A DNA stretch of 18,112 nt from Pseudobacteriovorax sp. GTDB lineage: Bacteria; Bdellovibrionota_B; Oligoflexia; Oligoflexales; Oligoflexaceae. The position numbers were made by a program, and so were the translations under genes. Below, piece after piece: positions 16,716 through 18,112 of the stretch. The stretch lies in assembly GCA_050293845.1 (NCBI GenBank), contig JBNKNM010000105.1, forward strand, positions 1-18,112, read 5' to 3'. The notes beneath the pieces were generated by a model. It ran no database searches and was not told the DNA's origin. It saw nothing but the letters and a program-made list of their open reading frames with translations. The first letter of the stretch is position 1. Every line of letters starts with the position of its first letter.

Positions 16716-17034
16716 TTTTTCTCTCCACTCGTCTTTTGATTTCAATTTCGCAACAGGCAACCATCAACTAGCATATCTTCCCCGACATCTACAGCTATCT
16801 TCCTTAGCCCTATTAGATCTTATGCGATCTTGCAACCAATCAATGGTAAAACTATGCCTGAAAAAGTGTGGTATGTAAGATACTAACATCATTAGTAGTA
16901 CTAGAACTCTACGCATGATATTTGATGGAAATGCACAAAAAACTGGAAAACTCAAACCGGATCGATCAATTTTGTCTGATCAGGGAAATCCTATTGGAGT
17001 CGGCACGAGACGAAAAACCATTACATGATTTACA

Positions 17035-17922
17035 TCAACTTTTTTCTGGTTTGCGAGAGAATATAACCATTCCAATACCACCTAATATGATGATTAATGC
17101 AATAACTAAGCGCATAGTCAAAATCTCATCTAGAAACAAAACTCCACCAGCAGCTGCAATAATAGGAACCAGAAGTTGTAGGCTGGCCGCTTGGGTTAGG
17201 GTCAGACCAGATAAAGCATAGTACCAAATCACATAGCCACCAGCCGAAGCTAGACTCCCTGATAAAATTGCGTATAAAATGCCTGACGAGGTATAGATAA
17301 ATCTCCCCCAAAGGAATGTCAAAGGGATTGCTAGCAATGACCAGGGTACGGCCCAAGTAAAGTTTTGTGTAGTATCTTTGACAGGATTTTTGCTCACCCT
17401 CCCCGAATCGGTATAAAGGCCCCAAGAAACACCGGAGCCAATCATAAGAATAAATCCTAAAAATGAGGGCGTAGACAGGGTTGGGTAGAGCAAGTAAAGC
17501 AGGCCAGTAAACGCGACAATCACACCGAAACCCTCGATGAAGGACAGTCGCCGCCCCCGCCAGTAAGTCAAGCCAATCAGGGTAATTTGAACGGTTCCAA
17601 AGAGCACCAAAGCACCGGTTCCCGTATCTAGACTAACGTATGCTAACGAAAAACAAATGGCGTACAAAAAGAGCCAAAAACTTGGCAGCTTGCTTTTCGA
17701 CACTATCAATGAAACATTCTGCTTAGGCTTGGATTTTAAAAGAAAGAAAATTCGTAATACCAAAAACCCTGAAAAAATTCTAATCATCGTAAAAAGGCTT
17801 GGATCTATACTGCCATCGGCCAAAGCTAGCCTACAAAATACTGAGTTACCAGCAAATGCAATGAGGGAAAAAATCGTTGCCATGACAATATTCCATGGGA
17901 TGTTTCTATTGGCTTGTAGCAT
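17035..17922 (-). CDS. DMT/EamA family membrane transporter
   Basis: About 10 hydrophobic segments in two repeats; AFAGNSVFCRLAL, YAICFSLAYVSLDTGTGALVLFGTVQ, GYVIWY, QLLVPIIAAAGG. Confidence 0.9.
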   Translation of the reverse strand: MLQANRNIPWNIVMATIFSLIAFAGNSVFCRLALADGSIDPSLFTMIRIFSGFLVLRIFFLLKSKPKQNVSLIVSKSKLPSFWLFLYAICFSLAYVSLDTGTGALVLFGTVQITLIGLTYWRGRRLSFIEGFGVIVAFTGLLYLLYPTLSTPSFLGFILMIGSGVSWGLYTDSGRVSKNPVKDTTQNFTWAVPWSLLAIPLTFLWGRFIYTSSGILYAILSGSLASAGGYVIWYYALSGLTLTQAASLQLLVPIIAAAGGVLFLDEILTMRLVIALIIILGGIGMVIFSRKPEKS

Positions 17923-18008
17923 TAGCAGATCTACCTCAAAGCTTTAGCAAAACAATTTATAGCGAAGCCAAAGCTAGCTTGAAAGCTAAACAGTTGATTT
18001 GTTTTCAT

Positions 18009-18112
18009 CAAACTTCTCCAGGAAACCCGGTCTCGTTAGGGCCGGGAGGAATGGAGAAGCCCTGCGGCGAGCATCGAATCGTTGATTCGAAATCCTCCAT
18101 TGCGGTTAAGGT
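18009..18112 (+). mobile_element. left end of an IS200/IS605-superfamily element (IscB- or TnpB-type); continues past the right edge
   Basis: Target tetramer TCAT (18005-18008), then GAAA (18022-18025) at the 5' foot of the imperfect hairpin CCCGGTCT-CGTT-AGGGCCGGG (18026-18046), enclosed by CTTCTCCA/TGGAGAAG (18013-18020 / 18052-18059). No transposase or nuclease gene is visible in the window. Confidence 0.7.

Follow-up and report, generated by a model that had tools for sequence, protein, structure and literature searches.

A probable left end of an IscB-type IS200/IS605-family element at the end of a Pseudobacteriovorax contig, and the repeat family to which it belongs

The closest described systems are the iscB elements of G. 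stearothermophilus and IS608 of H. pylori. According to PMC10055086, the iscB elements of G. stearothermophilus mostly occur without tnpA, and one TnpA moves several element families in trans. The tested transposon-adjacent motif (TAM) of GstIscB (ISGst5) is TTCAT, the omegaRNA scaffold comes from the right end and its guide lies outside the element. In that paper TAM and DNA guide covary, so that their joint change is already published for ISGst1-5, and miniature derivatives are found beside full copies. For IS608, PMC3201880 gives TTAC, TCAA, AAAG and the pairs C-3/G-35 and T-4/A-34, together with base triplets at positions 3' of the hairpin.

The window, meaning the whole stretch of DNA that was analyzed, is the entire contig C105 (18,112 bases) of a 6.68-Mb draft genome (G000; 741 contigs, GC 41%). 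We conclude, with a probability of about 0.93, that positions 18009-18112 form the left end of an IscB-type element, non-autonomous and belonging to the IS200/IS605 family, and that TTCAT at 18004-18008 is its target site. "Left end" (LE) is used in the sense of the top strand cut by TnpA. An IS200/IS605 left end had been proposed here in the initial annotation, and a direct check of the sequence found all the pieces listed there in their places. The features are as follows.

18004..18008, plus strand: TTCAT, target site / TAM, which precedes 37 of the 38 left ends in the genome
18009..18112, plus strand: first 104 nt of the element, to the contig end, with near-identical copies at 32 contig ends and 6 internal sites
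18009-18021, plus strand: linker CAAACTTCTCCAG, 13 bases, read from the sequence
18013..18059, plus strand: compound stem-loop, in which an outer helix (18013-18020 with 18052-18059) surrounds the guide, the hairpin and AGGAAT (fold and covariation)
18022..18025, plus strand: GAAA, DNA guide tetranucleotide (+14 to +17), which abuts the hairpin foot on its 5' side (IS608 rule, joint change in relatives)
18026..18046, plus strand: subterminal imperfect hairpin CCCGGTCTCGTTAGGGCCGGG (fold; foot 100% paired across 31 elements)
18047-18052, plus strand: AGGAAT, read from the sequence
18047..18048, plus strand: AG immediately 3' of the hairpin; the corresponding IS608 positions make base triplets with the guide and the cleavage site
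18053-18059, plus strand: GGAGAAG, read from the sequence
18074..18090, plus strand: second hairpin TCGAATC-GTT-GATTCGA (sequence, fold, nearest relatives)
18011..18112, minus strand: last 34 iscB codons (TLTAMEDFESTIRCSPQGFSIPPGPNETGFPGEV), 33/34 identical to residues 409-442 of the 442-aa database protein P0001
18008..18010, minus strand: iscB stop codon TGA (direct reading, with the frame taken from the P0001 match)

The hairpin at 18026-18046 consists of a CCCGG/CCGGG foot, an unpaired T18031, CTC/GGG and the loop GTTA, and is presumed to be the TnpA binding site. Cleavage by TnpA would fall after T18008, and by analogy with IS608 the AG at 18047-18048 may take part in a base triplet. Read on the minus strand, the TAM is ATGAA and stands 3' of the IscB target. 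The iscB stop codon TGA is made up of the last two bases of the element (TG) and the first base of the TAM (A), and a second in-frame TGA follows within the TAM.

This element has in common with ISGst5-type elements the TTCAT 5' of the left end, a right-end omegaRNA scaffold with an external guide, the absence of its own tnpA, guide/TAM covariation and miniatures. It differs in its host and in the number of left ends (at least 38 here), and activity was shown there whereas here it is inferred. With IS608 it shares the imperfect hairpins near both ends, a guide of 4 nt on the 5' side of the foot that selects the cleavage tetranucleotide, purines in the triplet positions after the hairpin, and apparent insertion 3' of the target without duplication. 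IS608 has TTAC as its target and encodes tnpA and tnpB on the top strand, whereas here iscB lies on the opposite strand and its stop codon is completed by the TAM. With IS608 as the comparison, a further feature of the present element is the outer helix that encloses guide and hairpin.

When the last 163 bases of the window were compared with the genome using BLAST, similarity starting at 18002-18004 was observed in more than 40 contigs, mostly within their final 70-115 bases. A stricter count gave at least 38 left-end starts, 32 of them no more than 115 bases from a contig end and the other 6 inside contigs. Other copies following TCAT had been predicted, and TTCAT indeed stands before 37 of the 38 starts with a variable base in front of it; only a diverged C208 copy departs from this. 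The window copy is 98-100% identical to young copies. Target duplication was absent in both complete copies checked (2/2). It is the repeat nature, together with the covariation described below, and not the fold energy, that places the left end above chance.

Two of the starts are broken, in C221 after 132 nt and in C19 after 38 nt. They are precedents for a solo left-end remnant, in which case unrelated DNA would follow soon after 18112. We consider such a remnant improbable for the window copy, since it is clear in just 2 of the 38 starts and the readable part of the window copy shows no break. Very small elements (about 50 bases), with the left-end start fused to the right-end tail, were also seen in C17 (~54631-54686), C7 (~32358-32411) and C103 (~2251). 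In the C17 hybrid the join lies inside both hairpin loops, which have CTTTAGG in common.

The element stands upstream of an EamA-type transporter gene (17035-17922, minus strand), 86 bases from its start codon, and iscB has the same direction. Transcription leaving the element could reach this gene; a search for promoter-like sites in 17700-18112 found none. A stretch that folds into hairpins 86 nt upstream of a gene start might also be an ordinary terminator or a small RNA of the neighbouring genes. This explanation has hardly any probability left, as the stretch recurs in 38 or more places whose flanks are unrelated, a search of 17700-18112 gave no terminator-like site, and Rfam at gathering scores gave no matches over the whole window. 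The HEARO part of the element is outside the window. The ARAGORN scan of the window for tRNA and tmRNA found no genes.

The contig stops at 18112 because the repeat could not be assembled. The window copy has a private G at 18035 (hairpin loop, element position 27), where most copies have T and only C192 and C374 also have G. The break at 104 bases into the element fits a 77-mer assembly limit counted from this G, and therefore the contig end is uninformative about the sequence beyond it. The two element-end sequences explain why the window contig and about 60 other contigs of the assembly terminate.

The opposite end of the element was found via older copies inside contigs. It recurs at about 30 places, always terminating ...GGGGGTAATTGAC, and all 30 right ends examined finish with TTGAC and are followed by variable, unrelated sequence. 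The right-end hairpin that had been predicted is present (CCCCC-T-CC-TTTA-GG-T-GGGGG) and resembles that of the left end (CCCGG-T-CTC-(G/T)TTA-GGG-CCGGG); in the nearest relatives the left- and right-end hairpins are identical. Both ends thus carry subterminal, imperfect hairpins of like form, and terminal inverted repeats are lacking.

The initial annotation had also predicted an omegaRNA/HEARO cassette, and a HEARO, encoded by the iscB strand, indeed makes up the other end. The Rfam model RF02033 (HEARO/omegaRNA; gathering score 83) matched three copies above that score, namely C10:101-338(-) with 119.7 bits, C275 with 99.1 and C14 with 98.4, and scored 77.5 in C387. In the three copies the matches span the full model (positions 1-211). 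They start exactly at the right-end boundary and open with GUCAA, the complement of the TTGAC end. In C10, the iscB start codon lies about 70 nt downstream of the match. An omegaRNA directly upstream of iscB and reaching the element boundary is therefore a property of the repeat family (C10, C275 and C14). Most copies are cut by contig ends, and the window's contig stops before this part of the element.

As for the protein, a minus-strand iscB to the right of the window had been postulated, and C462, which extends an identical left end, reads directly into an IscB-like C-terminus on its minus strand. An N-terminal IscB piece in C321 (RRXRR domain, 189 bits) was used as the search query and led to P0001. 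The tie of P0001 to this genome rests on the identity of its ends: its N-terminus equals the start in C10 (MLAFVLNRHGK), and its last 34 residues match, at 33 of 34 places, the codons of the window, where the frame is open across the whole visible left end. P0001 is 90% identical to the C321 piece and matches C462 at 99% over residues 297-434. P0001 scores 342.7 bits against the NCBIfam model guided_IscB (NF040563; cut-off 175) and contains the Pfam domains RRXRR and HNH. An IscB (RRXRR, HNH) whose 3' end lies at the left end is thus established for the repeat family, and the window holds the last 34 codons of such a gene. The end of a TnpB element, which had been left open as an alternative, is excluded, since the ORF next to the left end runs on the opposite strand and encodes IscB, and the RNA of the other end is HEARO.

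OgeuIscB, whose TAM we take to be other than TTCAT, is among the IscBs with solved structures. Over its RuvC and HNH parts P0001 matches the solved chains (OgeuIscB 7XHT, 7UTN and others) with E-values between 1e-35 and 1e-37, and it has 442 aa compared with about 495 aa in these proteins. Residues D58, E156, H217/H218, H305 and D308 of P0001 are invariant in a 29-protein alignment of its relatives and presumably occupy the expected catalytic places. In GstIscB, residues D58/H209/H210 are named in PMC10055086. For the left-end DNA that encodes the iscB tail, P0002 and the copy at G000 C2:17056-17380 use a different reading frame (..LAAGLLHSSRP), so the tail looks constrained as DNA structure and not as protein.

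No full-length iscB was found in the assembly. The family models find pieces only, the best match being a 173-aa N-terminal piece, and P0001 residues 194-296 have no tblastn match. The iscB copy of C462 (L001; 1013-1090, 1513-1589) is interrupted near residue 297 by a Tn3-family terminal repeat, which is also present at C8:1855-1930 beside a Tn3-type transposase and inside an IS3-type gene. An assembly walk from C462 ran into this inverted repeat (C8) and not into the iscB interior, and no contigs overlapping C10 or C31 were found.

Among 18 genomes of the same taxonomic family, 8 have IscB genes; these belong to one genus and their products are about 32% identical to P0001. The window's genus is represented by one further genome (94% complete), in which the search gave no IscB. 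The nearest relatives of P0001 (72-79% identical) are from metagenomes, and because of this and the distance to the relatives in the taxonomic family, the element family looks acquired and then multiplied in this genome. The empty site anticipated in relatives did not turn up, as 0 of 30 relatives matched the flank (16900-18003) at the DNA level. In the other genome of the genus (G001), the EamA orthologue has 45% identity and a different neighbourhood. A 348-aa TnpB-like ORF (G001 C71:48570-49613, L032) is located upstream of this orthologue, with relatives in C56, C220, C106 and C258 of G000. Because this ORF adjoins the orthologue in G001, the right-hand partner contig of the window could not be named.

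The cleavage and guide tetranucleotides of IS608 (TTAC with AAAG, and TCAA with GAAT, which we take to be its guide) obey a common rule. The first two guide bases pair crosswise with the first two cleavage bases (guide 1 with cleavage 2, guide 2 with cleavage 1), guide base 3 is an A opposite A, and guide base 4 is complementary to cleavage base 4. The present element shares this rule at both ends. At the left end GAAA predicts TCAT, as had been claimed in the initial annotation, and the rule extends to the right end, where CAAG stands directly before the hairpin and the element ends with TGAC.

For comparison with relatives, 160 IscB loci from public genomes and metagenomes were scanned, of which 88 were parsed. 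The parser looked for a hairpin whose foot had 4 bp or more, together with a guide-like tetramer, a purine-rich 3' motif, a short outer helix and fixed flanking motifs. An earlier hairpin finder had given many false parses and was dropped in favour of this one, which is anchored on the flanking motifs. The rule was obeyed by 82 of the 83 plausibly parsed left ends, a count in which the parser fixes part of the pattern, many of the 160 loci are related copies and not independent events, and element boundaries are independently known only in genomes with several copies. The predicted tetranucleotides, searched 11-19 bases upstream, were found as follows.

guides GAAA, GAGA and GATA: predicted TCAT, found in 67/67
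guides GAGC and GATC: predicted TCAG, found in 6/6, with TCAT there in none
guide GAGT: predicted TCAA, found in 1/1
guide AAAA: predicted TTAT, found in 8/9

Guide bases 4 and 1 therefore shift jointly with the TAM (TCAG/GAGC, TCAA/GAGT, TTAT/AAAA). The five remaining parses and the one AAAA miss were taken as false, being AT-rich hairpins away from the gene end. Among those loci, L042, L061 and L075 have a regular left end in another scan, and L091, which did not parse in an earlier scan, has only TTCAT-spacer-GGAAAC. The hairpin is followed by ATGAAT (second base T) in the TTTAT class and by AGGAAT (second base G) in the TTCAT class. The TTTAT class thus differs at three positions at once, as expected under the base-triplet model of IS608. 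TTTAT, guide AAAA and ATGAAT were seen at L066, L067, L071, L087, L092, L095, L105 and L179. The comparison of the 160 loci shows a natural co-change of TAM and guide in IscB elements, in agreement with mutation work on ISGst and IS608.

When the 109 nt were folded as single-stranded DNA, both hairpins and the 8-bp outer helix (18013-18020 with 18052-18059) were obtained. The fold energy was -20.1 kcal/mol (z -2.30); among 200 shuffles 4 were as good, which makes the fold only modest by itself. Covariation was analyzed in 31 left ends (4 from this genome and 27 relatives); C275 and C14, which the parser missed or misplaced, and elements with long hairpins were left out of the set. Over the outer helix, the foot and the inner two pairs, 88.0% of the cells were paired compared with 58.9% in shuffles. 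None of 500 shuffles reached the observed value, and slid partners gave 39-51%. The hairpin foot was 100% paired with two-sided changes in 4/5 pairs, a pairing that is partly due to parser construction, and the outer helix was 79.8% paired with two-sided changes in 7/8 pairs. The outer helix is kept by covariation in elements from bacteria to archaea (Methanosarcina). In the case of the second hairpin, compensatory changes retain it in the nearest relatives only (73.6% paired, 5/7 pairs two-sided).

Wobble pairs in the hairpin (9 G.T and 0 A.C) favour the top strand. In the outer helix, G.T pairs on the top strand number 21 and A.C pairs, which would be G.T on the bottom strand, 8, a difference that is not decisive as 9 of the 21 come from the weak terminal pair. 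The iscB frame passes through the outer-helix structure and has its stop codon supplied by the TAM. The outer helix pairs the linker between TAM and guide with bases 3' of the hairpin and so, if formed, should compete with TAM-guide pairing. It could then set the timing of end cleavage or, as RNA, shape the 3' end of the iscB message. We think it rather unlikely that the left end of IscB elements holds a conserved switch outside the IS608 picture, built on the covarying outer helix, in a family that burst to about 40 copies and is perhaps active.

Beyond 18112, either a full 442-codon iscB with its omegaRNA (about 1.6-1.7 kb as estimated, and not assembled) or a shortened derivative would follow. 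That the window copy is full length has near even odds, slightly in its favour. A shortened derivative of the same family (a PATE-like miniature, an omegaRNA-only form or an internally deleted iscB) would be a variant within the main reading and no contradiction to it, and we give it somewhat less than an even chance; the initial annotation had allowed for a non-autonomous derivative as well. Every copy resolved inside a contig is shortened or broken, and the iscB interior was not assembled. C275 and C14 are about 890 bp long with a common deletion of residues 68-307, C99 joins a left end to a right end in about 210 bp, C387 has a left end and HEARO without iscB, and C17, C7 and C103 hold the tiny hybrids. 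The resolved copies are, however, the diverged, older ones (85-92% identity) and were assembled because they are diverged, whereas the window copy has the high identity to young copies given above and a frame open over 34/34 visible codons. In addition, the contig behind P0001 has 1530 bases, which is about what a full-length repeat collapsed in assembly should give. Parts of the stretch were present in nine sequencing runs, available as contigs only.

The two deleted copies (C275:453-1333, L002, and C14:43952-44837, L003) have about 84% identical DNA. Their deletion removes RuvC-II, HNH and RuvC-III and leaves open frames of 193-197 aa beside full HEARO. A working mini-protein was considered for these copies and rejected: over 184 codons dN/dS amounts to 0.82, and the frames contain in-frame indels. 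Both copies look like derivatives in decay.

The genome has 23 matches to PF01797 (Y1 TnpA), at least 7 of which cover nearly the whole domain. No TnpA was found beside any copy of the element, and no identical left end was found at the TnpA loci examined. A tnpA (Y1) element at C31:71-535, C232:7835-8269 and C23:45311-45388 has a left end built on a like plan, with TTTAT, the guide AAAA and the hairpin CCTGCTCCTTCAGGTGCAGG. Its tnpA is antisense to the top strand with the 3' end at the left end, and at least three of its left ends lie at or near contig ends. The diverged IscB left end in C387 has a hairpin nearly equal to CCTGCTCCTTCAGGTGCAGG. By this likeness, the tnpA is a candidate gene for the transposase that would move the IscB elements in trans.

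Starting from the two ends, the dispersed copies, the C-terminal IscB frame, the omegaRNA and the guide/cleavage match at both ends, the following course can be proposed after the IS608 and ISGst work. A Y1 (HUH) TnpA encoded elsewhere would bind the subterminal hairpins on the single-stranded top strand and locate TCAT| via the guide GAAA and TGAC| via the guide CAAG. The top strand would be excised as a circle and inserted 3' of another TTCAT without target duplication. IscB would be translated from the minus strand and loaded with an omegaRNA, for whose 5' guide the sequence next to the right end would serve as the template. The donor site left empty (flank + ATGAA) might then be cut by IscB, and recombination would copy the element back into it. 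The TAM ATGA(A) predicted in the initial annotation agrees with this, as ATGAA is the reverse complement of TTCAT, the experimental TAM of the ISGst5 IscB in PMC10055086.

The element is of a known kind of mobile element and leaves the current understanding of such elements unchanged. It adds a compact IscB (442 aa) with a defined TAM (ATGAA), an omegaRNA scaffold and element ends. Its recent multiplication in one genome hints at an active nuclease-transposase pair.
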